From positions 23,272-87,271 of IMG/VR virus record IMGVR_UViG_3300043788_000049: DNA of 64,000 bases; one strand, written 5' to 3'. A program made the translations under genes and the position numbers. The notes below the pieces were generated by a model. The model saw only the letters and a list, made by a program, of their open reading frames with translations. It had not been told where the DNA came from and did not search any database. Origin of the DNA: a virus. Positions 859-63,900 of this stretch are shown piece after piece (position 1 is the first letter of the stretch; every line of letters starts with the position of its first letter).

Positions 859-1245
859 TTAGGGAAGGATCAGCGGCGGCCCCTTGACCGTGGCGTCATC
901 GGGTGGGACGAGCCCGGTCTTTTGCTGAAATTCAAGATATTCGCCGGAATTGCAGGGCGTGAAGACGACGCGCGCGCGGTCCCAATCTGGCCTACCGCCC
1001 GAGGCGTCGGCGGTTTCACGGATTTGCGTCTTGACGGCTCTGGTCAGTAAATCATCGATCCGGACGTCCTGAGTGTGCCTACGACACAGATGGCAATCGT
1101 GCATGCTGACGATGGGCTTGCGGATTTTCTCGTGCCAGCCAACGAAGGGGACCAGAGCGCAAGGGGCATACGCGCCGTTTTCATCGCATCCATGCGAGTC
1201 ACAGCGAAACCCGAAGAGAGTGGTCCCTTCAACTCGACGTGCCAT
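859..1245 (-). CDS. Hypothetical Cys/His (zinc-binding-like) protein
   Basis: CDSHGC...CHLCRRH; start MARRVEG abuts the upstream stop. Confidence 0.55.
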   Translation of the reverse strand: MARRVEGTTLFGFRCDSHGCDENGAYAPCALVPFVGWHEKIRKPIVSMHDCHLCRRHTQDVRIDDLLTRAVKTQIRETADASGGRPDWDRARVVFTPCNSGEYLEFQQKTGLVPPDDATVKGPPLILP

Positions 1246-1871
1246 CAGCGGAGCGCCCACTGAACGATCGTGGCGATGAGGGCCACAAAAGCGGACGCGA
1301 CTATCGCTACTAAGCTCCAATCAAGCCGAAGCGGCTTGGAGGAGAATGAAACTTGTGATGGCTGCGTCCTTGTCAGGGACTGCCACACCAGATGCTCATT
1401 GAGCTTCTCGTTCTTGTCCTCGATCGCGCCGAGAACATCCATGGCATGGAATAAAGCTCCGGCGCTATCGACGTAATAAATGCCATGGGGCGGCCCATAG
1501 CCGTGGACGGTCAGCACATTTCCGCCCCAATGGATATTGTAGGCCATCAAAAGGCCATGAGCCGCCTGAGTCGGCGCATAATCCTTGAGCGTCTCGCAAT
1601 ATTCTCTGACCTTTGCGGCATGGTCGGGATTGGCAAAGACCGAATCAGCCGGACAATCGAGCTGGGGCGGAACTTCGGGGATGATGGTGGGGGCGGGGGC
1701 AGGCTGGCTATAGACGCCGGCCTGTTGATAGGTGCCGCCGCCATACGGCTGGGTTGCGAGAACTTGCCCCATCCCCGACAGCCCATTGCCGCCGCCGCCA
1801 TATTGGCTTAGGGCGTGCTGGTAGGCTTGGGTGGCGGCGTTCATCTGCGCGAGCATCGCTGGGTGCATCAT
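1245..1871 (-). CDS. Hypothetical protein, Gln/Gly/Tyr-rich N-terminus and C-terminal TM helix
   Basis: 208-aa ORF coupled to neighbours by stop/start overlap. Confidence 0.6.
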   Translation of the reverse strand: MMHPAMLAQMNAATQAYQHALSQYGGGGNGLSGMGQVLATQPYGGGTYQQAGVYSQPAPAPTIIPEVPPQLDCPADSVFANPDHAAKVREYCETLKDYAPTQAAHGLLMAYNIHWGGNVLTVHGYGPPHGIYYVDSAGALFHAMDVLGAIEDKNEKLNEHLVWQSLTRTQPSQVSFSSKPLRLDWSLVAIVASAFVALIATIVQWALR

Positions 1872-11425: not shown

Positions 11426-11631
11426 GCATCATTTCCAGCGTCGATCTGGCCCGCAAGCTCGTCATCATGGCGTCCGGCGAGGAAGTCCCGATCACCAATA
11501 TGTTCGATCGGCACGGCGAGGAAGTGACCGACCCGCGCCGCGCCGCGACCGTCGTTGCCGGGCCATGTGAGGCGGGATGGATTGCCACTGTCCTTAGCGA
11601 GGAGGAGCGGGAGGAGTTGGAGCCAGCGTAG
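11422..11631 (+). CDS. Hypothetical phage protein
   Basis: VPITNMFDRHGEEVTDP..VAGP..GW; ATGA-coupled. Confidence 0.6.
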   Translation: MSIISSVDLARKLVIMASGEEVPITNMFDRHGEEVTDPRRAATVVAGPCEAGWIATVLSEEEREELEPA

Positions 11632-11902
11632 CGCGCAATTCCTCGATCACGTCAATGATGTTGGGGCCGGGCTCCTCCCACGCCTCAATGATCGGCCATT
11701 CCTCCAACTCGGGTTGGCGCAGATCGCGCGGCAGCCACCTGCCGTTGCTCATCAGAGCCCACACTCCTTGGATATTTCGTAGCATGAGCCCGTGGGCGTG
11801 CCGTGAGAGCACAAAATTAAGCGGAAGGTCTGAGCGCACTCGCTCGACCGCCCGTTCCTCAGCCTCACTCATCGGGAGGCAGTTAGGGTCATATCGGATC
11901 AT
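11594..11902 (-). CDS. Small protein with C-terminal PNLFD-ELR-like tag (member 4)
   Basis: EPGPNIIDVIEELRA near the C-terminus. Confidence 0.75.
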   Translation of the reverse strand: MIRYDPNCLPMSEAEERAVERVRSDLPLNFVLSRHAHGLMLRNIQGVWALMSNGRWLPRDLRQPELEEWPIIEAWEEPGPNIIDVIEELRATLAPTPPAPPR

Positions 11903-12147
11903 CGCCGCGCCCGCAGTTCGTCGAGGAGATCGAAGAGGTTGGGGGCGTCTACGGATAAGACGATCCAATGCCCGTCGAGCCCCGTTTCCTTTTCCCATGC
12001 CATTCTCGGGAAATGGCCATTTTCATCAACTGCGACGAAGGTGGCGAACTCGTAGCGAAACGTGCATATCCACTTGCCACCGCGAGGCAAAAGATCCGCG
12101 CCCGTGAAGATGCGCCCATCGGGCGTAAAGACCGGACTGCTAGCCAT
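11899..12147 (-). CDS. Small protein with C-terminal PNLFD-ELR tag (member 5)
   Basis: Ends DAPNLFDLLDELRARR. Confidence 0.75.
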   Translation of the reverse strand: MASSPVFTPDGRIFTGADLLPRGGKWICTFRYEFATFVAVDENGHFPRMAWEKETGLDGHWIVLSVDAPNLFDLLDELRARR

Positions 12148-12382
12148 CCCGCTTGGCCTCCAGCGCGCGTAGCTCCTCGATCACGTCCACAATGTCAGGG
12201 CCGGGAGGGGGCGGGTTCTTCCACGCATCATACTGCGCGGTCCAATCGATCCGGAGCGGATAGAGCCAATGAAGCACGAAGCCGAGAAGAAGCCCGAGCC
12301 CGAGGATCACGATTGAACCCATCATCACGATCGCCAGAAAGCCCAGGGCGATATTCACGACCATGTCGGGATCAATCATCAC
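12140..12382 (-). CDS. Small membrane protein with C-terminal tag (member 6)
   Basis: TM segment, then PPGPDIVDVIEELRALE. Confidence 0.75.
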   Translation of the reverse strand: MMIDPDMVVNIALGFLAIVMMGSIVILGLGLLLGFVLHWLYPLRIDWTAQYDAWKNPPPPGPDIVDVIEELRALEAKRDG

Positions 12383-13536
12383 GCACTCGGGTCCAGATCG
12401 AGCAACTTCCCGAACGGCGGCTTGTTCGAATAGCCTCCATATCGCACCCAGAGCACCGGACAGCCGGGTTCCTGGCCGAAGCTATGGCAGCACAGGTCGG
12501 TCAGATAAACGACGCCAGAGGCCTTGGGAGCGTGTTCTGCGGTCCATCGGAAGGCCGGAGCGAAATCTGTCCCCCCTCCAGGCTTCGGACACACGTTGAT
12601 GATGTCGCCGGCCTCGAACTCCAACGTCTCTTGGACCGCGCAATCGCAGAACCCGACAGTCAGCTTCTCGCACGCGCTCTCATCGAGGAAGCCCTGTAGC
12701 TCCGCCATGATCGCGGCCAGGGAGCGCTCGTCCATCGAGCCCGACGTGTCGACCCAAGCGACGATATGCGAGGGCGCGATCGAGCCCGACCCTGGAAGGA
12801 TTATCCCGTCGCCATAGTCGCGGCGCGACGGGCGCGTCCAATCGGTGTCAACGATGCGTGATTCGTCCGCCCAATCCCGGAATAGCTCCTTCCAGGTGAT
12901 CGTGGGCTTGTCCAAATCGGCCATCATCTTGACCAGGGGCGCGGGAATCGAGCCGACGTTCTTGGCGCGCGCCACCGCCATCGCTTGTCGCACCTGCACC
13001 TGGGCGCGGCGCTCGGCCTCCTTCATTTCCGAGGAGGCATAGGGCGGCGCAGCGTCCATCACCCCGCCGCACTTGCCGGGGTCGCTGCCATCGCCCCCCT
13101 TGACCTTCTTCGCGTTCTTGACCAGCAGGTTGTAGACCTGCTCGGTCGACATGCCCTCGTATTTCTGGTCGTAAAGGTGCGGGTTCGGCAGCTTGATGCC
13201 AGCGCGCCGCAGATCGGCGTTAATGACGAAATCGCCGGCAATGTTCCAGATGTCGCCCTGGCGATCGCCGCGGCGCGTGTGGTGGAGATAGCAAACGTGC
13301 ATCACTTCGTGCGCAAGGACAGCTTCAAGCTCCTCCATCTTCAGCTTCAGGACGAACGGCGCCCAATAGAACAGGCGCTTGCCATCCGTCGCCATCGTGT
13401 CGATGCCAGAGCCCTCGGGGCCCGGATGGACCCCCATGTGCATGATCAAGACGGCGAAGAATGGCTGGCTCATCATCAGCCGCGCCCGTGCCTTCAGGAT
13501 CTTCTTCTCAGCTTCGATCTGGTCTGGAGTCAGCAT
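12379..13536 (-). CDS. DUF2201-type metallopeptidase-like (HExxH) plus vWA-like domain protein
   Basis: TMATDG, LAHEVMH, WNIAGDFVIN; MIDAS DTSGSM, GGGTDF, YLTDL. Confidence 0.9.
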   Translation of the reverse strand: MLTPDQIEAEKKILKARARLMMSQPFFAVLIMHMGVHPGPEGSGIDTMATDGKRLFYWAPFVLKLKMEELEAVLAHEVMHVCYLHHTRRGDRQGDIWNIAGDFVINADLRRAGIKLPNPHLYDQKYEGMSTEQVYNLLVKNAKKVKGGDGSDPGKCGGVMDAAPPYASSEMKEAERRAQVQVRQAMAVARAKNVGSIPAPLVKMMADLDKPTITWKELFRDWADESRIVDTDWTRPSRRDYGDGIILPGSGSIAPSHIVAWVDTSGSMDERSLAAIMAELQGFLDESACEKLTVGFCDCAVQETLEFEAGDIINVCPKPGGGTDFAPAFRWTAEHAPKASGVVYLTDLCCHSFGQEPGCPVLWVRYGGYSNKPPFGKLLDLDPSA

Positions 13537-13967
13537 CAGAAATCTCCATCGGCGATCTGAGCGCAAGGGATTCCAAGCTTGCGCCATACATCCACGACGC
13601 GCTTCCTGTCCTCGAAAATCATGATCGGCTCGAACCCCGCCTCGCGCGCCTCAGCCAGCAACTCGACCTTGACCACGCTATCGTCTCGATAGTCGCCAGC
13701 CTTGCGCATGAAAAGGCCATGGATAAGCACTCCGTGCTTGGTCAGCCATTCCACTGTGAGTTGCCGGCACTCATCAGAGCGCCCCGAGAGGCACACGACT
13801 GGCGCAGGGAGCATCTGCGCCAGATCGATCATGTGAGGGATAGGCGCGTCGCCGTCGCACGCAGCGAAGAAGGCCCGCCAATCCTTTGGCTTCTTCTGGA
13901 TGTGATGCAGCCGATGTGACGGGTCCGAAAGCGTCCCATCGATGTCGAAAAACCATGCCCGCTTCAT
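13536..13967 (-). CDS. HAD-superfamily phosphatase (T4 PNKP phosphatase-like)
   Basis: FDIDGTL, SGR, LFMR..D.R.D..VK, FEDR. Confidence 0.9.
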   Translation of the reverse strand: MKRAWFFDIDGTLSDPSHRLHHIQKKPKDWRAFFAACDGDAPIPHMIDLAQMLPAPVVCLSGRSDECRQLTVEWLTKHGVLIHGLFMRKAGDYRDDSVVKVELLAEAREAGFEPIMIFEDRKRVVDVWRKLGIPCAQIADGDF

Positions 13968-13978
13968 TTTCTGCCCCC

Positions 13979-14974
13979 CTAGATCGAGATGTCCTGGTTC
14001 CGCGTCGCCCACTCGGTGTAGGCCTTGGTGGTCTTGAGCGAGGGATCGCGCTTGACCGCATCCGTGACCAGCGTCATCTCGAAGTCCTTGGTCAACCGGC
14101 CGCCATAGATGAGGATCGCTTCGAAATTTCCCCGATCCGCCTTGCGGGCCAGAGCGCCAACCACCGCAAATTGGGTGTTTGGAGCCGATGGAACCGCAGC
14201 CTTCCTCGGATGCGCGATGATCTCGGCCAAGGGCGGTAAGGTTTTATACGTCTGAATGAACGCCTCCAGTTCCGACGCCGCGCCCTCGCCAACTAATCCC
14301 TCGATCAGCTTTTGCCGAATATCGTCATCGGCATGGATGACCTTGGCGACCTGGACCCAGGACCGCGGCGACGGGAACGCCCGAACCTCGATGTTCTGCG
14401 GGACATTGTGGAGCAAGGCCGGCCGATAGCGCAGGAAGGCGCAGATGAGCGGTTCGATCAGCGCCTTGTTGGCCCAGGACTGCCAAGCGTCCATGTCCTC
14501 CTCGACGTCGATCCAGGCAAAGCGATTCGCCAAGCCAACCGGCATCTTGTTGACGCCGGAGCGGTCGATCTGCCGATTGCCCGCGGCGACGATCATTGTC
14601 CGGGGAGGCAATTTATGCAGGCCGACAGCCCGATTCCACACCAGTTGGAAAAATGCCGTTTGCACAGAAACGCTTCCCTGAACTAATTCGTCGATGAACA
14701 GCATCGTCGGCCTGTCGCCGTAGCTCTCCAGCTCCGTCAGCCACTTCGGCTTGGCCCAATCGACGCCCGCATCCGCCCGGAAGGGCAGGCCACGAACGTC
14801 AACTGATTCGAGCGTCGTCGCGCGCTCCTCGACCAGCACAGCGCCCAGCTCATCGGCGACCTGATAGACGCCCTCCGACTTGCCGATGCCGTTCTTGCCG
14901 GAAATCATCACCGACATCCCAGCCGCGAGATAGGCTTTCAGGCACTTCTTAGCCATCGTGACGTTCATAGGCAC
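13979..14974 (-). CDS. MoxR-like AAA+ ATPase
   Basis: Walker A GKNGIGKS, DVRGLP, Walker B LFIDE, AAGNR, LANRF, FPSPRSW. Confidence 0.9.
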   Translation of the reverse strand: MPMNVTMAKKCLKAYLAAGMSVMISGKNGIGKSEGVYQVADELGAVLVEERATTLESVDVRGLPFRADAGVDWAKPKWLTELESYGDRPTMLFIDELVQGSVSVQTAFFQLVWNRAVGLHKLPPRTMIVAAGNRQIDRSGVNKMPVGLANRFAWIDVEEDMDAWQSWANKALIEPLICAFLRYRPALLHNVPQNIEVRAFPSPRSWVQVAKVIHADDDIRQKLIEGLVGEGAASELEAFIQTYKTLPPLAEIIAHPRKAAVPSAPNTQFAVVGALARKADRGNFEAILIYGGRLTKDFEMTLVTDAVKRDPSLKTTKAYTEWATRNQDISI

Positions 14975-15289: not shown

Positions 15290-15390
15290 CCCATAAATGA
15301 GGCCGTAGAGCCGGTCAAGCGAAATCTGGCTGTTTCCCCCAATAATATGGGCGTGGGCAGTTGACATGCGCCAGAATATCATATCTAAGG
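15290..15390. promoter_or_regulatory. Divergent sigma70-like promoters
   Basis: TTGACC on minus (15313-15318) and TTGACA on plus (15361-15366) in the AT-richer gap between oppositely oriented operons. Confidence 0.5.
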
Positions 15391-15429
15391 AGCGTGGGGC
15401 GATCGTGTCCCAATCGAAAGGGGTTAAAA

Positions 15430-15624
15430 ATGTTAACCATTCACCGCACCGCCCAAGAATGCCAGAACCTCGCCGCTACCTTCGCCAAGGACGCCCTCGA
15501 AGCCCAGGAGCGCGGCGACGAAGGGATCGCCTGGGCCTTCATGGCCAAGTCAGCCTATTACGAGAATGAGGCCCTGGAGCAAATGAAGATCGAAGACCAG
15601 ATGGCCGAAGCCCTCGCGGCGTGA
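15430..15624 (+). CDS. Small acidic helical hypothetical protein
   Basis: AAGGGG RBS; first gene of the plus-strand operon. Confidence 0.65.
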   Translation: MLTIHRTAQECQNLAATFAKDALEAQERGDEGIAWAFMAKSAYYENEALEQMKIEDQMAEALAA

Positions 15625-15736
15625 AGGAGGACACCATGAGAATCACACCGATCGAATTAGCTCTGATCCTCGCCCTGGTGGCGCTGGCTGTCACCGTCTC
15701 TATCGCAACAACCGCAGGGGTGTGAGAATATTTGGC

Positions 15737-16015
15737 ATGAACCCCCACGCCCAGGCAGTCGAGGCGATCATGGAGGCGGTGGCGGAATATGCGCCGCCGC
15801 TGGATAAGCCTGTGGGGTTTCTCCATGAATTTCTCGACCGCGCGGCGTTATTGGACTTGGACGGAGCCGAAAACTATTTGCGGTGGTTGCTGAACTTGCC
15901 GACGGACACGCCCGGCATTCTCGTGCAACACGGATTCCGGTGGGAACGGGAGCCTAATAAGCGGCGCAGAGAGATCCTCGTGAACTGGCTCCGGCGCGTA
16001 AGGTTCATGAAATGA
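15737..16015 (+). CDS. Small protein with N-terminal HAxxVxAIL tag (member A)
   Basis: MNPHAQAVEAIMEAVAEY. Confidence 0.75.
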   Translation: MNPHAQAVEAIMEAVAEYAPPLDKPVGFLHEFLDRAALLDLDGAENYLRWLLNLPTDTPGILVQHGFRWEREPNKRRREILVNWLRRVRFMK

Positions 16016-16557
16016 CCAAGCGCCACGTCCACCACATCGACGGCAACCCCAACAACCACGACCTCGCCAATCTGAGGTTGGTAAAGGCGAGCGTTGGCGT
16101 GTCGCCGAACTTGAACCCGGTGCCGCTTGGGAAGCTCTACGGCCGCTCCCCCGGCTCGCTCCCTGCCGACTTCGAAGAAGCGATGGACCGGATTAATTCA
16201 TTCAACCGTCGCTTCAAAACCCGCCTCGTGAAGGTGACGCCCCCGCCGGCTAACAAGGAACATGCGGCGGAGGTCCAGAGCATTCTGGAGACGGTGTGCT
16301 CGGTGGACTTCGCGCCATCGCCCCAAGGATTGCCAGGGATGCCCACTGAGGCTGATTTCGCCTATGCAGCCAGTATGGACAGCGCGGGCCGCGCCCTTGG
16401 GCATGTAGGCCGTCTTGCTGCCAATCTCTGCGGGTATTCAGAGCAAGTATTCGATTGGACTGTTGGCGAGGGACGCGCTTGGCTAGGGGCTACTCGCTCC
16501 TTCCGCCGCGATTGGCTCCGAGGCAAGGTCGAGCGCGCCTTGAGGGCCCGCCGATGA
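16012..16557 (+). CDS. HNH-motif remnant fused to an internally tagged domain (member B)
   Basis: HVHHIDGNPNNHDLANLRLV at the N-terminus; internal EHAAEVQSILETV. Confidence 0.7.
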   Translation: MTKRHVHHIDGNPNNHDLANLRLVKASVGVSPNLNPVPLGKLYGRSPGSLPADFEEAMDRINSFNRRFKTRLVKVTPPPANKEHAAEVQSILETVCSVDFAPSPQGLPGMPTEADFAYAASMDSAGRALGHVGRLAANLCGYSEQVFDWTVGEGRAWLGATRSFRRDWLRGKVERALRARR

Positions 16558-16853
16558 CCCACGCCGCCGAGGTCGAGCGCATCCTGGCCCATGCCGAGGA
16601 GTATCTGGCTCCGCCGCAGCGGGTTTTTGATGCAGACTGGCTGACGGAGTGGTGCAAGGGCATGAGCGGTTTTTCGGCAGGGATCGCCGCCATATCCTGC
16701 GTGAGTTATTTCAAGCTAGATGAGCCAGAGGCGATGGTCGCCGACTTGCTTAACCGCCTTGGCTGGAGGGTGGCCGGAGCTACCGCGCGCGTCACAATCA
16801 TTCGCAATGCCTTGAGCATCTTTGGCGTCCGGACGAAGCAGGCTCGCCCATGA
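16554..16853 (+). CDS. Small protein with N-terminal tag (member C)
   Basis: MTHAAEVERILAHAEEY. Confidence 0.75.
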   Translation: MTHAAEVERILAHAEEYLAPPQRVFDADWLTEWCKGMSGFSAGIAAISCVSYFKLDEPEAMVADLLNRLGWRVAGATARVTIIRNALSIFGVRTKQARP

Positions 16854-17149
16854 CCAACGACGCCCATAGCGCCCAGGTGGAGGCGATACTGGAGCAAATC
16901 GGGGCGTTTGCCTTCACCCCAGGAACCAACCTGCGGGTCTGCGTAGGCCAAATCGTTCCAGGTGATGTGATCGTTTGGGACACATGCCAAAGGATCGTGA
17001 GAAAAGTCCGGCATACCGGCGGCCAATATATCGAAGTCTCAATGAGAGGCGTTGACGGTAAGGTGTTCGACGTCGATTGGGACGTCACTCATCACGTCGA
17101 AATCCTCACCCCGCCATTGCCGGAATGTATCGCAAGAGGCTTGCTATGA
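16850..17149 (+). CDS. Small protein with N-terminal tag and SH3-like body (member D)
   Basis: MTNDAHSAQVEAILEQIGAF; IVPGDVI..RIV..V. Confidence 0.75.
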   Translation: MTNDAHSAQVEAILEQIGAFAFTPGTNLRVCVGQIVPGDVIVWDTCQRIVRKVRHTGGQYIEVSMRGVDGKVFDVDWDVTHHVEILTPPLPECIARGLL

Positions 17150-17373
17150 ACCCCGCCGATCACAAAGCCGCCGTCGAGGCGATCGAGGCAAAGGTCGCGG
17201 AGTATGAGGGGCCAGTGCCTGCCCACGATCGCTGGACTGTCGATTTGGGTAGCACAACCATCACGCCACTCTTGAGCGGCAACTTTAACGTGCTGAGTGG
17301 GTATTACCTTGTCGCAACGCCGGAAGAGGCAGCAAAAAACCAACGAGCCTTTTGGGAGAACCTAGACCTATGA
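17146..17373 (+). CDS. Small protein with N-terminal tag (member E)
   Basis: MNPADHKAAVEAIEAKVAEY. Confidence 0.75.
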   Translation: MNPADHKAAVEAIEAKVAEYEGPVPAHDRWTVDLGSTTITPLLSGNFNVLSGYYLVATPEEAAKNQRAFWENLDL

Positions 17374-17618
17374 CCGACGCCGTGACCATCAAGTCCTTCT
17401 CCGAACTCGCCAAGGAATGGCGGACCCGCAACCGCTACTCCCGCCCCCAGCTCTCCGAGCTGACGGGATACTCCCCCTCGGCCATCCAGGACATCGAGGA
17501 GGCGATCTACCGCTCCCCGCCCCATCCGGTCAGCCCGGAGGTCATGCGGCGCTACCGGCTGATCTGCGCCGCGGTGGAGCACAAACTGACGGATTGGGAA
17601 TTTACCGATCGGGGATGA
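17370..17618 (+). CDS. XRE/Cro-type HTH regulator
   Basis: KEWRTRNRYSRPQLSELTGYSPSAIQDIE. Confidence 0.8.
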   Translation: MTDAVTIKSFSELAKEWRTRNRYSRPQLSELTGYSPSAIQDIEEAIYRSPPHPVSPEVMRRYRLICAAVEHKLTDWEFTDRG

Positions 17619-17619
17619 A

Positions 17620-17892
17620 ATGACCCACGCCTCACAGGTCCAGGCCATCCTCGATCGCGTCGCGGAGTGGGAGACGCCGCATGCCGCGGTGATCGAAGCA
17701 GCCTTGGAGCAAGCCGCGCACATGGCTCCGGGCGAAGCCTTACGCTGGCTCAACGCTCGCTTCGGGACGCCAATCCCGCAGTTTTGGGTCCAGCACGAGG
17801 TAGGAACGTGGGGATCGATAATAAAGATTGAGGAGCGCATCGTTTGGCTGCGGCGAAATTGCCTCAGCCCGACGCTAGGCTCCGGGTCTTAA
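17620..17892 (+). CDS. Small protein with N-terminal tag (member F; paralog of A)
   Basis: [17 protein letters not shown]; LRWL..P...VQH...WLRR shared with member A. Confidence 0.72.
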
Positions 17893-18064
17893 CCCGCCGG
17901 GACGCCGTCGCTCGACGGGCGTCCGAGATATGACGGGCCGGAAGCTTGCCGCCAGGATCAGCTCTCATGAACTCCTGGCCAACCTTCTTCGGGATTCCGA
18001 GTGTGGAATGGCCCGAGGCAGCAGCGGCCATCGCACGCCGCTGAGGTTCGCTGACGGCGGGCAA
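17864..18064 (-). CDS. Small basic phage protein
   Basis: [31 protein letters not shown]. Confidence 0.7.
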
Positions 18065-54590: not shown

Positions 54591-54997
54591 AGCCTGAAGA
54601 TCGTCTTACCTGATTCCCAGCCGATATGAACGTCACCCGCCTGTGGCGAAAAGGGAAATTTGCCGCTACCGAGGGTGTCAATATGGGCGATCAGCCGGCT
54701 CGTGGCTCGGGAGCCGGTATCCTGGTAGACGACGATGAAATCGACGGAGGCCGCATCGACCGCCTCGATGACGACGCTATTGGCGCAGGCGACGCCGTTC
54801 TCCCCCGTCTTGCCCGTCAACACGACGCTCTTGGACACCACCGCCGCGCCGAGGTCGGCCAGAAAGCGATCCTTCTGGATATTGGCCTTGCGCTGCTTGC
54901 CATCGCAGAGGACCGCGCAGATTTTGTCCTCCAGCCACTTAATCTGGCCGCAGAGGAAGGCTTCACGCCCTTTCTCAAAGAGACTGTTCGCCATCAT
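54587..54997 (-). CDS. Minor tail protein-like
   Basis: ANSLFEKGREAFL.G.I.W..D; LTGKT..GV..A; LIA.ID; P.GDV.I.W. Confidence 0.65.
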   Translation of the reverse strand: MMANSLFEKGREAFLCGQIKWLEDKICAVLCDGKQRKANIQKDRFLADLGAAVVSKSVVLTGKTGENGVACANSVVIEAVDAASVDFIVVYQDTGSRATSRLIAHIDTLGSGKFPFSPQAGDVHIGWESGKTIFRL

Positions 54998-57900
54998 TCG
55001 ATCCTTGCGCCAGTGATCATGCCGGTTTCGTCGCGTGAGAAAGAGACCTTCGTCTTGTTCTCGGCTCCGACCGTCGCCCCGGTGATGAAGCCATTCTCAT
55101 CGCGAGAGAAGGAGACGCTCTTGGCCCCGCCCTCCATGCACTTGACTGCGGCCTTATAGGCTTTCTCAAGCTGGTCCGCCATTTCTTGGGTCATGACGTG
55201 AGGCGGTTCGGGGACGCCAGCCTCTTTCGCGGTGCGCGCGGCGGCGGCGATTTCCTCATCGGTCGCCAGCAAGCGGTCGTAGACGCCGCGCATTTCTTCG
55301 GAGATCGGACGCCCAAGGCGCAAGAGGCCACGGTAAATCTTGCGCAGCCAGTCCTTGAACATCTCGAAGACGCGGGCGAGGCCTTCCGATGGAGCTTTCC
55401 CTGAGGCCAGATAGTCCTCGAAGCCATCAGAGAACTTTTCGCGGTGTTCTGGCGTGAGGCTCTCGCGGTCTTTGGCTCCCACAAAGGCTAGCGCCGTGGC
55501 GGCGTCTGCCTTGATCTGGGGTGAAGCGTCCGGCGCGGAGGCATCCTCCAGCAGCTCGTCGAACCAAAGATGCGAACCCTCGTGCATGACTGTCGAGGCG
55601 TCCGCCGTCTCGAACAGCTTGATGATCCGCTGGTTGCCCTGGAAGGTGATGGCCCCGCGCTGCGCGCCGCCGGGTAGCGCCGGCCCTTGAGCCAATTCCT
55701 TCTCAGTCTCCGGCTCGATCGTCGCCGCGGGGTTCGGCGCCTTCATCGAATCGGATAGCGCTTTGATCTTCTGAAGCGTCTGCTGGTATTCGGCCTCCTT
55801 CGGCCATTTGCCGGCGGCCAGCTTTTCGAGCTTCTCGAGGTCCTTGCGCCGATCGGCCAGCGCCGTCTCGGTCGCCTTGGCCCTGCTGGCGATATTGCCC
55901 AGGAGGTTCTCAAAACGCCGGATCAGGCCGCCGGGGTCCGTCTCCTTATTAAGTATGGTCTGGGTCGGCGAGCCATAGGGGTCCGTGCCCTTGAGCATCG
56001 GCGTGCCCTTTAGATAGAGCCCGTCGCTGTCGTATTGGGTCTGGACCTGCATCTGCATTTCAAAGCCGGACAACTCGCCCAGGTTGATGATTTTGGGCGT
56101 GTAATAGCGGCTGGCGTCCAGAGCCAGCACGGTCTTGAGGATGGCTTCGCCAGCCGCCTTGCGCTCGGTGATCACCTTGCCGCCGACCGTGATCTTGAAC
56201 TTGTCGCCGGCAAGGTCCTGCACGCGATCGCCGTCGGCCTTCTCGGTCGGCAGGCGCTCCTCGTAGGTGGCGATGGCCGCGCGACTGGCGTTGATCTGCC
56301 AGGAGGCGCGATCGACGTTCTGCTTATGCGCGCGCCGCTGGGCGGAGAGTTGCCGAGCCTGCCGATCGAGTTCCGCCAATTCCATGATGCGAGTATCGCC
56401 GGAGGCCGCCGCCTTCATTTCCGCCGCCTCGGGGAGCGGGTTGTCGATGTCCTCGGCGTGGCGCGAGCCCTTGGCGCCCGACAAGACTTGGCTGATGAAC
56501 TTCGACTTCGTGTCGAGCTTTTGCCACATGAAGGCGTCGAACGAGCGCTTGGTCACGTAGCGGAAGATTTGCACCTGCTTGTTGAGGTTGCCTTGGCGGA
56601 CAATGCGCCCGTCGCGCTGTTCGACCTCCGCCGGCTTCCATGGCGCATCCAGATGGTGCATCGCGATCAGGCGATCCTGAACGTTAGTGCCGACGCCCAT
56701 CTTTCCCGACGAGCCGATAAGGACACGAATATCGCCAGCGCGGACCTTCTTGAATAAGCGCCCCTTGGCAGCATCGTCCTTGGCGTCGTGGATCGCCGCG
56801 ATCTGCTCCGCAGGAATGCCCTTATCGACCAAGCGCTGTTTGATGTCGGCATAGAGGTCAATCTTGGGTTGTTCGATCTGCGCCGGGTCGCCCATCTCAT
56901 CCTCGATAGGCTTCTTTGCCGCCACTTTGGTCTGCGGCACGCCCATGTCGAGGAAGACCATCTGGACAGTGCCCGGCTCTTTGCCCTTCTTCCAAATCTC
57001 GTGAATATTTTTAACAGCGAGCGCGATCTTGCCTTTGGGGTTGAAATCGAAATTAGGATCGATAAGGCGACCGTCCGTCGCAACCTTGCGTCCGGCCGTC
57101 ACGACCGAGAGCATGTTCGGTTGGCCCTTCTCAGGCCGCTTGCCTTTCAGACTCTCCGCCAATTCCACGAGCTTCTGAATGTGCAGTTCTTCCTCTTCCG
57201 AAGGGGTCGCTTGGACAATCTCAATCCCTGGTCCGCCCGCTTTGGTCCGAACCTCGGGCCGCGGCAGTTTGAGCATGTCCGCCGTCTTGGTGTCGGCGAT
57301 CTCGGAATAGAGGCTGATGAGTTCTGGAACGTTGACGAATTTCGAGAAGGACGAGACTTCCTTGAAGGTCCGGCCGTCCGCTGAAAGCTCCATGTTGTTG
57401 ACGACCTTGCCGAAGGTCGAGGCCCAGGCATCGAAGTTCTCCAGCCCCGCTTCCTTCAGACGGTCGAGTTCGAGATAGCGCATCATCGTCCAGAGTTCGG
57501 CCATCGTGTTGGAGACGGGAGTGCCGGTCGCGAACACCGCTGATCGGCCGGGGCGCTTTTGTTCGAGGTAGCGGATTTTGAGGAACAGGTCCTCAGCCCG
57601 CTGGCTGTCGCCCTGGGCGAGACCCTTAACATTCCCTAACCTACTGGAAAAATACAGATTTTTGAAAAAATGCGATTCGTCGATTACCAAATGATCGATC
57701 CCGGTCTCTTCAAATGAAACGCCAGTGTCCTTGCGTTCCTCGTTCAGGAGCTTTTGCAGCTTGTCCTCCAGTTTCTTCTTGGCCTTTTCGAGCGCCTTGA
57801 CCGTCGGCGAGCGCTTGTCATCGGTGTCGGCAATCTCCGCCTTGCGCGCCCGCTCCAATTCGTCGAGTTGCTCCTGGATGAAATTCTGCCGATGCTCCAA

Positions 57901-60900
57901 GCTTGTGTTGATACGCCCGAAGGCGGAATGGGTCATAATGACGCCATCCCAATCGTTCGCTGCGACCTTGGCGATAAACGCCTTCCGGTGCTCTCTAGTC
58001 ATTTCCTCCTTCTGAGCAACCAGAATTTTGGCGTTTGGATAGGCTTCGATGAACTCTCGGGCGAATTGCTCCAGCATATGGTCGGGGATAGCAAAAGCGC
58101 CTTTATTGATGAGCCCTAAGCGCTTCTGTTCCATCACAGCGGCAATGCTCGTGACGGTTTTTCCACTTCCAACACTGTGCGCCAGAAGCGTATTTCCACT
58201 CTGGACAATGCGCCAAACTGCATCCTTCCGATGCTTACGATCGGCGAATTTGGGATTGAGGCCGGGGAAGGTCTGGTGGGCGCCGTCGAATTGCCGCGGG
58301 ACGAGGTTGTTGTAGGTCCGATTGTAGATGGCCTCCAGGCGCTGCGCGCGCTCCGGATCGGCGAAGGCCCAGGCGTCGATGCCGCGCTCCGGGTCGCCGG
58401 TGAAGGCTTCCTTGAGCGCCTCGACGCGCACGCGCGCCGCCTCGGTTGCGCCTTGGTCGACCTCATAGACATCAGGATTGCTGCTGACGTGGTTCCGGAC
58501 GGTGATCTGGCGGTTGTTGATCGCAGCGTCGATCACATCGTCCACGCTCACCCGGTCGGTCCCGTAGGTGGTGTGGGCAGAGGATGAATACTGGCCGTGC
58601 TTGACCTTCCAGCCGCCGGTGACGGGAATGGTCGAAATCCGGGTGTTGTAGCCGCCGATCTCCTTGATGAACGCCTCGTAGACGTCCGCCGGGATCCATG
58701 GGGCCCCGAACTGCGCCATGATGTCCGTGCCGGTCAACGGGGTCGGCTGAACCTTCTCCAAGGCCGCGACATTGCGTGAGTAGGCCGGGTCGCCATCGGC
58801 AATGACGCGGGCCTCTTCGAGCTTCTTGACCACATCGCCGGAGAGATAGCGGTCCGCCGGCTCCCATTGCCGCCCGTTCGGGTTCTGGAAGATCAGATCG
58901 CCTAGCGCTTTCGCGGCGGCTTCCTCGCTCCCGACATTGAGCATCTGGCCGATCTGTTGCAGATCGACGCGGCCGGTGGCGTCGAGCGTCGCCGCGAGCG
59001 CATCGGCGGGGCCATTGATCTGGCGCTCCTTCGGCGGGGCGATGATGTCCTTCTTCTGAATGTCGGCGGGCTTGGCCGTGCCCGTCTCGGCGTCATATTG
59101 CTCGATCGCCGCGACCTTCCAGGAATCGGGGTCATCCTTGAATGGCGCGAAGTTTGGCGTCTTGGTGATCGTGACCGGCTCGCCCGCGCGCGTGAGGCGC
59201 TTGGTGGTCTTTGTTTCTTCCTTGTTGATCGGGCCATGCGCCTTGACGAACTGGTCATAGGCTTCGCGGAGTTGCTTGCGGAGAGCATCGGCCTTGTCGC
59301 CACCCGAGAGTTGCTCCTTGAGCAAGTCGTTGACGATATCGCGAATGCCGGAGAGCTTCTTGACCCTGCTTTCGTCATCCCCGGATAGCCTCTGCTCGAC
59401 GCCGCGGCCCTGCTCGCGCCGATAGACCTTGCCGCCCTTCGAGAAGTAGGCCCCTTCCTTGGAGGCTCCCGGCTCAATATCGCGCTGGTCGATGACGGGC
59501 GGCCGCGGCGAGCCTCTGGGGACGAAGGCTCCTTCCCGCATGGTCGCGCCAGCGCCGTGGATTGCCATTCCAAGGTCCTGCGGGTCGCCTATTAGCACCG
59601 GCTCATTCTTGGCATACATCGAGCCCATCAACCGCATCTCGCCCAGCATCATCTTCGGATGGTCGGCAAAATACTCGTTGATCTTGACCGGCCCCTCGGG
59701 AGTCGAAATCTCCTTGAGATTGGTCCAGTTCTCGCCCGGATAGTCCGGCTCGCCGGGGACCTTCTTGCGCAGAAAGATAATGTCGGTCGTGACCTCGGTG
59801 CCGGCATTCCCCGCGAATGCGCCCTTGTCTCCGCCGGGCAGGCGAATAGCGCCAACGAAATCCGCCGTCTTGGAAAGCTCGCGGCGTGTTCCCGCGTCCA
59901 CGCGATCCATCGTGTAGCGCGACGTGATGAACGAAACGACGCCGCCGGGGCGAACCTTATCGAGCGACTTGACGAAGAAGAAATCATGGATCGGATAGGA
60001 GCCGTAGGGCTTTTCGGTCAGATTGAAATTGCCGAACGGCACGTTCGAGATTGCGAGGTCGAAGTAATTGCTGGGCCGCTTCAGCGTCTCGAAGCCCTGG
60101 ACGTTAATGTCAGCATCCCCGTAGAGCGCCTTGGCGATCCGGCCGGTCAGCGAGTCCAGCTCCGTCGCGGTCCAGGCGGTGCGGCTCGCGAGGCTGTCGG
60201 GGATCAGGCCGATGAAGTGCCCAACGCCCGCGGCCGGTTCGAGCGCGAGGCCGCCGTTGAACCCCAAATGCTGGAGAGCGCCCCAGATGCCGCGGATGAC
60301 GTCGGGAGACGTGTAATGGGCATTGAGGGTCGAGGCGCGCGCGGCGGCGTATTCCTCATCGGTGACGAGCGCTCGGAGGGCGTCGCGCTGCTGCTTGAAC
60401 TCGGGCCCACGGTCGGAGAACATCTTTTGGGCGAACGCGCCCCAGCCGGTGTATTTGACGAGGGTCGCCTTTTCCTCCGGCGTCGCCTCGCGCGCCTCGT
60501 CCTCGATCAGCTTGAGAACCCGGATGGCGTCGATGTTGGCGTTGATCTTCGTCTTGGGGCCACCGACGCCGACTTGGTCATCGGGAGTGATGCGATAGTT
60601 CGAGCGGGTGCGCTCCGCGATCTTCTCCTCGGCCTCGGCTAGTCCTGCGCCTCGGGGGTCGGTTGATGGATCTGGTCGTGCCTCACCTGCTCCTGGACCT
60701 CCGCTTGGCGGCTTTGTAACTCCCTCACTCGGTCCAGGTAGGGCAGCTTCTGCACCTCCGGCTTGTTGTGGTGCTCCGCCATCAGGTGCTCGTCCATCTC
60801 CGACGCCGAGTTCCCCACCCCCTCCAGATAGCTCTGGAGGTTTCCGGATGCGCTTAGGTCTTTGAGGACGTGCGGCATTGCCTCCTTCAGGTATTGGTGG

Positions 60901-63900
60901 TGCTCCTGGCCGTATCTCTCCGCCGTCGGGTTGTTGAACATTGGCTTCCTCGCCAGTCGGGATGGGTGCGGGCTCGGTTATCCCCGGTCCCCACTCAGGG
61001 TCCTTGTTCCAGGCGTTGTCGTAAAGCTGCCGTCCCAACGCCATCACGTCCTTGTAGTGAGCGAGATTGGCGGGGTCTGACAGATCGAGGCGCTTGACCG
61101 GCTGTCGGATCGCATGGGCCTTTCTCATCACCTCGGCGATCGGCTTCGGGACGATCTGCAATTCCGCTGACGTGCCGTCCCCCAGACCGACTTGCAGGTG
61201 ATAAGCCCGGTAGCCCTCCTTGCTCGTCTCCATGGAGCTTTCAGCTTCCAGGACGCCGCCGGTGCGGTCGAGCTTGGCTAGGATTTCATCCATCGCGGCG
61301 CGAGTGTCGACGACGATGCGCGCGCCGAGGTAATCGGAGATTGTCGAGGCCGGGCGCCCCTTGACCTTGATCTTCTGCTCTAGGCCGGACTTGTCCTTGA
61401 CGCGGCTGTTGTAGACATGGGCGCCGTCGATGCCCGCGACCAATTGGCGCAACCCCTCGTCCAGCCGGGGTTTATTCTCTTCCGCAGCGGCATGGAGGGC
61501 TTGCCAATCGTTGCTCCCCTGAATAATTAATTTATTGGTGGAAGGGTCAATGTCTCCCAACCGGAAATCCGAAAATCGAGTGATCGCCGGCCCCTCGAAG
61601 ATTGATGGCGGCATTTCGCGGGTGATTGAACTGCCCAACGGCTCGGGCAGGGTCGAAACTTGGAAGCCCGGCGTCGGCTGGGTCGAGGGCGGCGCTTCGC
61701 CGGATGAATTTATCGGGGCGATGCCGGTATCCAAGGCATTGGCCGCGAGAGCCGGCATTCCCTCATCCGAACTCTGAGCCAGCCGGATTTCGACATTCTG
61801 CTTCGAATAGAGGTCCCAGGCGTCGCCCGCGCCGGTGCGCGCCGCGCGCGCGTTATAGCGGGCCGCCCAGACCGTCGCCGCTGCGTCTGCCACCGCTGGG
61901 TCCGTGCCCCCCGCGATCAGCTTCCGCCGCACGTCCTCGTAAACCATCTGGGAAGGCCCAGGAGGGGCAACGGGCGGCGCGGTGGCTAGATCAGCCTCCA
62001 ATGCCTTCGCCTGCTCCTGGCGGCCTTGCGGCGTGTCCAGATCGGGTGTTTCCGGCTCGGCGTCGGTGCGATCGAGGTCCGTGAGGTTGAAACCGTCCCT
62101 GGCGATCAGTTTCGCCACTTCATCGAGAAAGACGCGCGCGGCCTTACGGGGCTCCATCCCATCCACCACGCTCGACGCCGCGCGGTTCAAGGCCGCCGAA
62201 ATCGGCCCCGATCGGGTGGCAAGTTTCTGGAGCAATTGCCCAAGCTGCGCGGCTTGCTCGGCGCGGTCGGCATTGGTGTCGACAAGAACATTCCCCTGGC
62301 CCTCGATCCGCTCCGCCTCGCGCGCCAGAGTGGCGAAGATGCGCTTGTCCTCGCTGATGAGCGACATCGCGGCGCCGTAGACCTGCGCGCGCTCCTGGTA
62401 GAGCGAGCGGGTCACTTCCTCCTTGCCGAATAGCGTCTCCTGGACTTCCCTGGCGAAGCCGGCCGAATTGGCGTCGGCAATCATCATCCGGGCTTCGTTC
62501 TCGTTTTGCGGCTTGAACTTCGCCAATTCCCCCATGACCGCCGCATGGTTCTCCTTGCCCGGCATCATATTGCCGACCAGGGCCGCGTGGTTCTGCGGCA
62601 CAACGCCGTTGAGCGTCATTTCCCAAGCGGGGTCCGAAAGTTCGGAGAGGCCCTTGGCCTGCCGCAGTTTGCCCGACGTGATCGGCAGGCTGTCGTCCCA
62701 CATATCCGGGCGGTCGCGGAAGACGCGCGCAGTGTCGAGCGCATCGCCAGAGCCTTCCTGGATATTCTTCTTCGCCGAGATTGCGCGGGCATCGGCTGGC
62801 GTCCAGCCGTCCTTCTCACGCAAAAGAGCGCCGGTCATGCGGATCGATGATGTCAAGTTTTCCGCCCTCAGATGCGTCTCTTCCGGGCGCTTTGTTTGAG
62901 CGGCATTCTGGGCGATTTCCTGGGCTTCTCTCCTACCGACATAGCGGCCTTTGGAGGTAATGAAGCCGTCCAAGCCGATGGCGTCGATGTCCTTTATGTC
63001 GATCCCGGCGGCCATCGCCTTCGCATAGGCATCAGAGTGAAGAGGCCCTGTGAATACGCGACCATCCTTGGCCTTGATCGCCGATGAGACAATGCGCTCA
63101 GGACCTGTGGCCTCTTGTTCGGACAGAAGCCGCTTCGCCAGCCCAAGGCGCTGATGGCCATCAACAATGGTCCGCGTCCCATCGGCGCTTTCGTAAACGA
63201 CGACGTTCCCCGCCGCGAGCGGGTCCCAGCGCTGCACGCCCGAGAGCCGATCCGTCACGCCCTGCTGGTTGGCCCCGCCCTTATATTGGAACGCCTGGGC
63301 GTCGGTGCCGAGAGTGCGGGGATCGAAGCTCGTATAGGTGATCGGCTTCCCCTCGACCATTTCGGTGTGGCCGGCGGCGCGCTCGGGAAAGCCCTGGTGA
63401 TCCGGGATGACGGCGATCGGCCCGGCCGGCGGCGCGTGCATCGGCGGCTGCGGCGGCGCGACAATGTCCGGGTTCTCAGCGTGCCGGACCATTCCCTCGT
63501 AGGAGCGGAGGTTTTCTTCCGCCGGCACGCCGGGGACTGCCGGCGGCGAGGCAAGGTGATCGTTCTCGGCCCGATCGACGAGGCCGTGGTTGGCGGAGGT
63601 CTGCGGGGCTTCGCGATCGGCGGCGGCGGGCGGGACGAAGGGCTTCGGCGGTCCAGGCAACGCCTTGGGAGGGCCGGTGGGCGCGGTTGGCGGCGCGGGC
63701 TCCTCGACCTTCGGGGGCTTTCCCGTCGCCGCGGCGCGCGCGGCCTCACGGGTCGAACCGACCGGCAGCCCGTTATCTTTCTCCCAATCCGCGACGCTAT
63801 CCCAGAATTGCTTGGCTCCCGGCGATGTGTCCTCGCCTCCATTCTGGGCCATGCGGATGAAGTGGTTGATCCCAGCCTGACCGAGAAGGCGCCCAACTTC

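Follow-up and report, generated by a model that had tools for sequence, protein, structure and literature searches.

A constant amino-terminal helix on divergent small proteins encoded beside a MoxR-type ATPase gene in a small phage clade

Introduction

The complete phage genome IMGVR_UViG_3300043788_000049 (87,271 bp, with direct terminal repeats) contains an operon of small genes whose products begin with closely similar peptides and then continue into proteins that have little in common, and this raises the question of what a shared amino-terminal leader does on otherwise different proteins. We analysed a 64,000-nucleotide stretch of this genome (bases 23272–87271, referred to here as the window, to which all coordinates refer unless another record is named) and describe its six leader-bearing genes, A to F, together with their relatives. 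An original prediction, made from the letters of the window, had proposed that the leader is a targeting or oligomerisation element on interchangeable cargo domains, analogous to the N-terminal capsid-targeting sequence of phage T4.

The phage is far removed from characterised relatives. No DNA match to positions 15400–17900 was found among 50,697 phage records, and its large virion and replication proteins are at most about 27–37% identical to anything in cultured phages.

Results

A leader motif in small, translationally coupled genes

Five of the six genes (A, C, D, E and F) start with a copy of the motif H-A-x-x-V-[EQ]-x-I-L-x-x-h-x-x-Y-x-x-P (h, hydrophobic), and B carries a sixth copy internally; a broader form, M-x(1-4)-H-[ASK]-x-x-V-[EQ]-x-I-[LME]-x-x-h-x-x-[YWF], describes the five starts. 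The motif histidine is at residue 3–6 in five of the six copies and at residue 84 of B (nucleotide 16261), so that all six, including the weaker internal one, lie where the original prediction had placed them. A search with the strict pattern yields five matches in the six-frame translation of the 64-kb window, all of them at the N-termini of A, C, D, E and F. We also built hidden Markov models (HMMs) from five copies each, leaving one out, and ran them against 1,707 six-frame segments covering the whole 87-kb genome. In every case the omitted copy ranks right behind those used for training, with E values of 8.5e-7 to 5.9e-3, and the best non-member has an E value of at least 0.33. The occurrence of the motif in the operon is confirmed as real and not a matter of chance.

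Start and stop codons overlap as ATGA at the A/B, B/C, C/D and D/E junctions and at that between E and the following helix-turn-helix (HTH) gene, and the genes are therefore translationally coupled. The 48-nucleotide leader cores are identical at only 21–32 of 48 nucleotides between window copies, and identical residues are specified by identical codons 59 times, where 46 are expected from the codon usage of the phage. Because the cores have diverged and codon identity is near expectation, the copies are old and under selection at the level of the peptide. Sequences of the 'linker' type used in homologous recombination were also considered, and were ruled out by the low DNA identity.

Elsewhere in the window, a weak leader-like stretch (P-D-H-A-A-K-V-R-E-Y-C-E-T-L-K-D-Y-A-P-T) occupies residues ~82–101 of a 208-residue product whose N-terminus is rich in Gln, Gly and Pro and whose C-terminus has a membrane helix. 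It scores E 0.12 against the genome, with Tyr replacing Ile, and may be either a degenerate copy or a chance likeness.

A second leader array in a sister phage

A pattern scan of IMG/VR with the alignment of the six proteins identified one related genome, IMGVR_UViG_3300037840_000227 (98,782 bp, complete), referred to here as the sister phage. Its plus-strand operon contains 11 leader-first genes, again divergent beside an ATPase gene and with an HTH gene in the middle of the array. In all 11 the histidine lies 2–5 residues past an ATG, GTG or TTG start that overlaps the previous stop, and an HMM made from the six window copies alone recovers nine of them at E < 0.01. The two complete genomes together have 17 leader genes, six in the window and 11 in the sister phage. 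When these are aligned with a further copy within the sister-phage ATPase (see below), His1, Val5 and Ile8 are invariant among the 18, and Ala2, Leu9, a hydrophobic residue at position 12, Tyr15 and Pro18 are common; the invariance of the histidine, claimed from the window copies, thus extends to every copy found. We considered an ATCUN-type metal site (X-X-His) and dropped it, as the histidine is at residue 3 in just three of the 17 genes (C, F and the sister-phage gene r01).

The leader persists while the bodies change

Mean pairwise identity is 41.5% over the 18-residue leader and 7.4% over the next 12 residues, and identity after the leader is at chance level. C and the sister-phage gene r04 share 14 of 19 leader residues with nothing detectable beyond them, so the leader does persist on varying cargo in a related phage, as had been anticipated. 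Most bodies cannot be matched to one another even when the search space is only 17 sequences. Those that can be linked are D with its sister-phage ortholog r02 (body E 7.6e-6), r06 with r09 (E 4.8e-4), r07 with r09, and, weakly, A, F, B and r01, the last being a weak counterpart of A; an 'R-x-G-D' stretch of D is also common to several sister-phage members. The original prediction had A and F as the only members alike beyond the leader. Their likeness proves to be weak (E 0.36 for the bodies alone) and is not confined to them, the C-terminal half of B sharing their 'WLR'. Core genes of the two phages are 57–65% identical, and the cargoes diverge much faster than these.

Structure prediction places the bodies in more than one class. 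The body of D superposes on SH3/KOW-like barrels (EF-P N-domain, DUF1918) with template-modelling (TM) scores of 0.62–0.65 in an Atlas model with a predicted local distance difference test score (pLDDT) of 0.65, and A is predicted, at low confidence, to be all-helical (pLDDT 65); the ESM Atlas model of C (pLDDT 0.49) is too poor for use. Within the limits of these models, at least two predicted fold classes follow one leader, an SH3-like barrel and an all-helical body, and no single fold common to all members emerges, in keeping with the proposal of interchangeable bodies. The sequence comparisons support the leader as a separate module that selection maintains on bodies of diverse kinds.

In a helical-wheel projection the conserved residues fall on one face (300–100 degrees), composed of His1, Val5, Ile8, Leu9, the hydrophobic position 12 and Tyr15, with Ala2 and Ala4 at its flanks. 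Positions 6, 10 and 14 give the opposite face an acidic character, and the net charge is mostly -2 to -3. An N-cap residue (Asp, Thr or Asn) precedes His1 and Pro18 terminates the helix, and the spacing of His1, Val5, Ile8, position 12 and Tyr15 is that of an a/d heptad pattern.

A leader-like helix within the sister-phage ATPase

In both phages the array begins divergently next to a gene for a MoxR-class AAA+ ATPase, and these ATPases are 57–63% identical. The sister-phage enzyme contains a 28-residue leader-like insert at residues ~66–93 (...G-A-H-A-D-K-V-Q-S-I-L-D-Q-M-E-V-Y-A-G-P...), and an identical peptide is encoded in L004 (Table 1); a second contig carries the same ATPase as the sister phage. 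The insert is unique among 61 ATPase homologues, being missing from the window ATPase and from the 59 others aligned. It is found by the window-only HMM at E 6.9e-4 and by a 17-copy model at 14.8 bits, and across the whole sister-phage record it is the sole match beyond the 11 genes (19.3 bits, E 1.9e-4). These scores of 14.8–19.3 bits compare with a maximum of 10.4 bits in 1.23 Mb surrounding 80 more distant ATPase homologues, where no leader carrier was detected. Third-codon identity between insert and leaders is at chance, and the insert is therefore not a recent DNA copy.

In an AlphaFold model of the sister-phage ATPase (pLDDT 92.5) the insert forms a helix (residues 67–88) at the tip of a hairpin of strands 62–65 and 96–99, between Walker A and Walker B. 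The best Foldseek matches of the model are NorQ and CbbQ (E 5e-10 to 4e-9), which identifies the hairpin as the helix-2 insert that defines MoxR-class AAA+ proteins. Structures of NorQ/NorD published in 2026 show that helix-2-insert hairpins line the pore at its N-terminal mouth and bind a 'finger' of the VWA partner, a mode that the authors presume to be general for AAA+/VWA pairs (PMC13036017). A search of PDB sequences with the phage ATPase returned nothing; 833 phage records match the window ATPase, and homologues at 44–47% identity were also found. Among cellular organisms the closest homologues belong to Hyphomicrobiales such as Mesorhizobium, Devosia and Aurantimonas, which is no more than a hint to a possible host.

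We then modelled a complex of the sister-phage ATPase, its VWA-peptidase (the product of the neighbouring DUF2201-type gene) and a 34-residue leader, with an alignment for each chain. The median score is 0.38, compared with 0.03 for the best control, which the procedure rates as 'weak support'; agreement between runs covers at least 27% of contacts, and the pLDDT of the partner is at least 55. Of 80 solved complexes 58 reach the mark for such scores, as do two of 110 mismatched pairs; at a score of 0.60 or under, only seven of the 80 solved complexes do so, together with both of the passing mismatches. Replacing the VWA-peptidase chain and keeping the ATPase chain lowers the score to 0.03, a collapse which suggests that the model placed the leader on the VWA-peptidase, although contacts were not reported.

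Genome setting of the operon

The leader genes sit in a plus-strand island (15430–17892) flanked by minus-strand genes, in the order U1, U2, A, B, C, D, E, the XRE-type HTH gene and F. To its divergent left side are the genes for the MoxR-type ATPase, a HAD/PNKP-type phosphatase and the DUF2201_N/DUF2201 VWA-like protein (Table 1). The operon lies outside the structural genes and is oriented opposite to them.

Table 1. Positions of the operon genes, their neighbours and related loci (window coordinates unless L002, L003 or L004 is given)
Feature	Position	Strand	Description
Gene with weak leader-like stretch	1245-1871	-	208 aa
Genes with shared C-terminal helix	9414-10310, 11594-12382	-	Six copies in two triplets
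DUF2201_N putative metallopeptidase + DUF2201 VWA-like protein	12379..13587	-	N4 gp25-like; candidate leader receptor
HAD/PNKP-type phosphatase	13536-14012	-	
MoxR-class AAA+ ATPase	13979..14974	-	N4 gp24-like; divergent from array; window copy without leader insert
Promoter-like site	15354-15382		Upstream of U1; consensus match alone
U1	15430..15624	+	First operon gene; 64 aa; without leader, without family
U2	15636..15725	+	29-aa hydrophobic peptide without leader; strong AAGGAGG ribosome-binding site; just 5' of A
A	15737..16015	+	92 aa; leader helix 15746-15799, then helical body
B	16012..16557	+	181 aa; internal leader 16261-16314, then A/F-like body ending 'WLR'
C	16554..16853	+	99 aa; leader 16560-16613; body fold uncertain, probably helical
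D	16850..17149	+	99 aa; leader 16865-16918, then SH3/KOW-like beta-barrel body (predicted)
E	17146..17373	+	75 aa; leader 17161-17214; body without relatives
HTH gene	17370..17618	+	82 aa; XRE/HTH_31-like (E 3.8e-5, under Pfam cut-off); without leader
F	17620..17892	+	90 aa; leader 17626-17679, weak second leader-like helix, then A-like body
Large open reading frame	54994-63975	-	~2,990 aa
Sister-phage open reading frame	L002 3956-4123		55 aa; hydrophobic C-terminal stretch
Sister-phage HTH gene	L002 7409-7633	+	
Sister-phage ATPase	L003 10001-11074	+	Leader-like insert
Sister-phage genes with shared C-terminal helix	L003 12241-13897	+	Six copies directly 3' of VWA-peptidase gene
Peptide identical to the ATPase insert	L004 1568-2638		

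Pfam and PHROGs assign no family to A, C, D, E or F, with one chance-level Pfam match for C (E 0.17). In B, residues 5–27 (nucleotides 16024–16092) are a remnant of HNH_3 that covers positions 20–42 of the 46 in the profile and scores 22.6 bits against a cut-off of 24.8; a complete HNH_3 domain above the Pfam cut-off was not found in the B N-terminus. The first 27 residues of B (16012–16092) correspond to the C-terminal half of this homing-endonuclease domain, in frame upstream of the leader paralog, and are probably a relic of an endonuclease gene formerly situated between A and B. The B product is either a 181-residue fusion or is made from an internal start.

The HTH gene is embedded in both arrays. 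It is 65% identical between the two phages, far better conserved than its leader-bearing neighbours, and its product is a candidate regulator of the operon. U2 has no sequence counterpart in the sister-phage operon, which contains an open reading frame with a hydrophobic C-terminal stretch. A GC-rich hairpin 3' of F is no more stable than shuffled sequence (z -1.45), which offers no support for a terminator at that site.

A second family, defined by a shared C-terminal helix (P-N-L-F-D-x-[LI]-[DE]-E-L-R-A), has six copies in the window and six in the sister phage. The positions of these copies are such that both families flank the ATPase/VWA-peptidase module in both phages. At the far end of the window, the large minus-strand reading frame has Pfam regions for SNF2-related, Helicase_C and RelA_SpoT, and Pfam gave no RNA polymerase match; for this reason the gp24/gp25-type genes are not in themselves enough for us to call the phage N4-like.

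Distribution of the leader family

A word-indexed search of 5.8 billion proteins gave no homologue of A, and tblastn found no relative of F in phage genomes. We also ran a profile of the six proteins exhaustively with HMMER over 1.84 billion representatives. Apart from those six proteins it returned only repeat-driven noise, namely prosaposin repeats and two further repeat proteins, one of them fibre-like. This null result leaves room for other carriers, because a leader-only match, at about 25–36 bits, would have fallen short of significance there. In IMG/VR, 14 stretches matched the leader written as a degenerate DNA pattern, of which the sister phage is the sole real one, and in prokaryote genomes at least 120 matches were listed, all of them single chance matches. 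Pattern scans of IMG/VR with one protein at a time, the ATPase or a 907-residue virion protein, gave nothing, a metagenome scan with the ATPase alignment gave two distant loci only, both without leaders, and the leader profile found nothing meaningful among PDB sequences (best E 0.08). As far as the searched collections show, the leader family is confined to one small phage clade.

One repeat protein resembles the leader. P0010 (1,175 residues, fibre-like, with an NHL-repeat C-terminus) contains the unit H-Y-A-Q-H-S-D-A-I-Q-T-I-L-K-D-L-D-G-Y repeated more than 15 times, which mirrors the leader in the form H-x3-[VI]-x2-I-L-x2-L-x2-Y and attains E 1e-4 only through the summed repeats. The likeness is probably convergent, and it offers a lead that this type of helix may serve as an oligomerising unit.

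Discussion

The operon encodes a clade-specific multigene family in which a constant helix of ~18 residues precedes small domains that are fast-diverging or exchanged. We propose that the leader is a protein-protein docking helix, most likely for the adjacent MoxR AAA+ ATPase/DUF2201 VWA-metallopeptidase pair, an account that we prefer and yet place a little short of an even chance. The accepted model for MoxR-vWA couples is that a client peptide is captured by the vWA protein and that the ATPase remodels the complex (PMC7159879). By extension, the constant helix would bring varied small proteins to one phage-encoded partner and would be the peptide that the VWA-peptidase captures as co-chaperone; the copy in the helix-2 insert of the sister-phage ATPase could be a built-in mimic, and may tighten or gate the ATPase-VWA contact. 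The docking itself, the identity of the partner and the later fate of the cargo, whether remodelling, cleavage or assembly, are what we infer. Rapid evolution of the cargoes would be typical of host-directed early proteins.

Several observations weigh against this proposal. The complex score of 0.38 falls in a range in which predictions, by the rating of the procedure itself, are wrong more often than right unless the proposed complex was already likely, and the VWA-peptidases of the two phages show no insertion peculiar to the clade, such as would mark a receptor site. A copy on a core component is not needed, since the window ATPase lacks the insert, and the ATPase/VWA pair evidently works without any leader, since the 80 other phages with the same ATPase have none. 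Synteny with the ATPase gene amounts to about one evolutionary observation, because the family is present in only two genomes and one fragment. The assignment of bodies to folds depends on models of modest confidence (pLDDT 0.65 for D and 65 for A), and a conserved first helix could simply be the slowest part of old tandem paralogs.

If the genes are ordinary tandem paralogs, the first helix would be a structural core or folding nucleus that evolves most slowly while the rest has drifted, and the leader would have no separate function. The coupled tandem arrangement is what one would expect of such genes, as are the residual similarities within sub-groups of bodies (D/r02, r06/r09 and the 'WLR' of A, F and B) and a leader codon identity slightly over expectation (59 compared with 46). 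Nevertheless, predicted fold classes differ between D and A, C and r04 have unrelated bodies behind leaders identical at 14 of 19 residues, the conserved residues form a single face of exposed type that ends at the Pro linker, and the motif is also maintained at the peptide level inside an unrelated ATPase; we therefore regard descent of this kind as unlikely, though it is the alternative to be taken most seriously. More doubtful still is a homotypic adaptor like the effector-associated domains (EADs) of bacterial MoxR-vWA conflict systems, in which mixed oligomers would form as the helices bundle among themselves and, in the sister phage, also with the six copies that the ATPase ring displays. 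The a/d heptad spacing of His1, Val5, Ile8, position 12 and Tyr15 would suit such bundling, and in the sister phage the arrangement follows the EAD architecture rule of one copy on a core component and more at the termini of diverse proteins from adjacent genes (PMC7159879). Two heptads are presumably short for a stable coiled coil, however, the six proteins have no match to a Pfam family, whether of EADs or of anything else, and the window phage has no core-component copy; the complex score also fell to 0.03 on replacement of the VWA-peptidase despite retention of the insert-bearing ATPase.

The analogy to T4 found no support in the analysis. A cleavable leader that directs cargo into the prohead or to a protease and is then removed would agree with the N-terminal position, the Pro-containing junction, the I-[LM]-E of several copies and the nearby gene for a putative metallopeptidase domain. 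But the complete genome yielded no Peptidase_S78 or CLP_protease (the controls for these were positive, and that for S77 was silent, so S77 is not covered), the (I/L)-x-E site is not in all copies, being absent from C, E and F, the operon stands apart from the structural genes in opposite orientation, and one copy is internal to a cytoplasmic AAA+ ATPase. The only cross-link that we found is to the MoxR ATPase/VWA-peptidase module and not to the capsid, and we consider a capsid-targeting role very improbable. Least credible of all, to the point that we give it almost no weight, is a nucleic-acid signal, be it a repeated site in DNA or RNA or a linker for recombination, whose translation is merely incidental: recurrence at gene starts with ATGA overlaps could be read in this way, but copies that match at 21–32 of 48 nucleotides vary freely at synonymous positions, which contradicts it, the phage collection contains no DNA match, and the sister-phage copies keep the residues and not the bases.

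The docking proposal can be extended to both tag families. The N-terminal leader array and the C-terminal 'PNLFD-x-L-x-ELR' array would then be address labels for a phage client-processing machine, in which the VWA-peptidase captures the tag, the AAA+ ring remodels, releases or cleaves fast-diversifying host-takeover or anti-defence effectors, and the sister-phage ATPase displays the tag on its helix-2 inserts as a mimic. We think this scheme improbable.

The closest system in its logic is the EADs of bacterial MoxR-vWA ternary conflict systems described by Kaur, Burroughs, Iyer and Aravind in 2020 (PMC7159879). An EAD is a small non-enzymatic helical module that a core component carries and that recurs at the ends of diverse proteins from adjacent genes; it undergoes lineage-specific expansions, is associated with MoxR and vWA proteins, and is predicted to act as a coupling adaptor (PMC7159879), its function being itself a computational prediction. 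The counterparts here are the adjacent leader genes of the two phages (6 + 11), whose bodies are unrelated, and, for the sister phage, the ATPase insert as a core-component copy; the window phage has no copy outside the six genes but the weak match at E 0.12. The phage leader differs in being a single helix of ~18 residues and not a domain, in its phage setting, in having its core copy as an insert in the helix-2-insert hairpin of the ATPase in one of two phages only, and in cargoes that are domains of 50–100 residues without enzyme signatures. Neither does it belong to any Pfam family by sequence, the six proteins matching only the HNH_3 fragment in B and, by chance, a family in C (E 0.17).

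The NorQ/NorD and CbbQ/CbbO pairs (PMC13036017, PMC9976466) offer a structural parallel, as the phage ATPase is modelled with the NorQ/CbbQ fold and the partner gene encodes a VWA-like domain. The helix-2-insert hairpin that contacts the VWA finger in NorQ/NorD (PMC13036017) is also the site of the leader copy in the sister phage. The phage partner, by contrast, is a DUF2201 metallopeptidase-VWA protein of the N4 gp25 type, and the phage ATPase is only about 16% identical to NorQ in sequence. The likeness to T4 capsid-targeting sequences is looser, and consists in a short N-terminal amphipathic tag common to otherwise unrelated small phage proteins; the leader family has no invariant cleavage site, its genes are outside the structural module, one copy is inside an AAA+ ATPase, and searches of the complete genome detected no prohead protease of S78 or ClpP type. 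A constant short terminal module on interchangeable cargo is likewise seen in encapsulin cargo-loading peptides and in polymorphic toxins, with their N-terminal trafficking domains. These are comparable by analogy only, as neither a shell protein nor a secretion system lies nearby and the sequences show no likeness. To our knowledge no tagged client family has been described for NorQD or CbbQO.

What is new here is an adaptor that consists of a single helix, its occurrence in phages, the grafting of a copy into the helix-2 insert of an ATPase, and a possible link to a gp24/gp25-type pair. We know of no function or substrate for pairs of a MoxR-type ATPase and a DUF2201 VWA-peptidase like N4 gp24/gp25, and the leader family, with its graft on an ATPase element, provides a testable handle on the substrates of such machines. 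If the leaders and the C-terminal helices are indeed address labels, their bearers would be the first proposed clients of this widespread gene pair. The family is also a natural example of a minimal constant module, 18 residues long, on rapidly changing cargo, a pattern expected in an arms race between phage and host, and the leader helix could serve as a portable tag.

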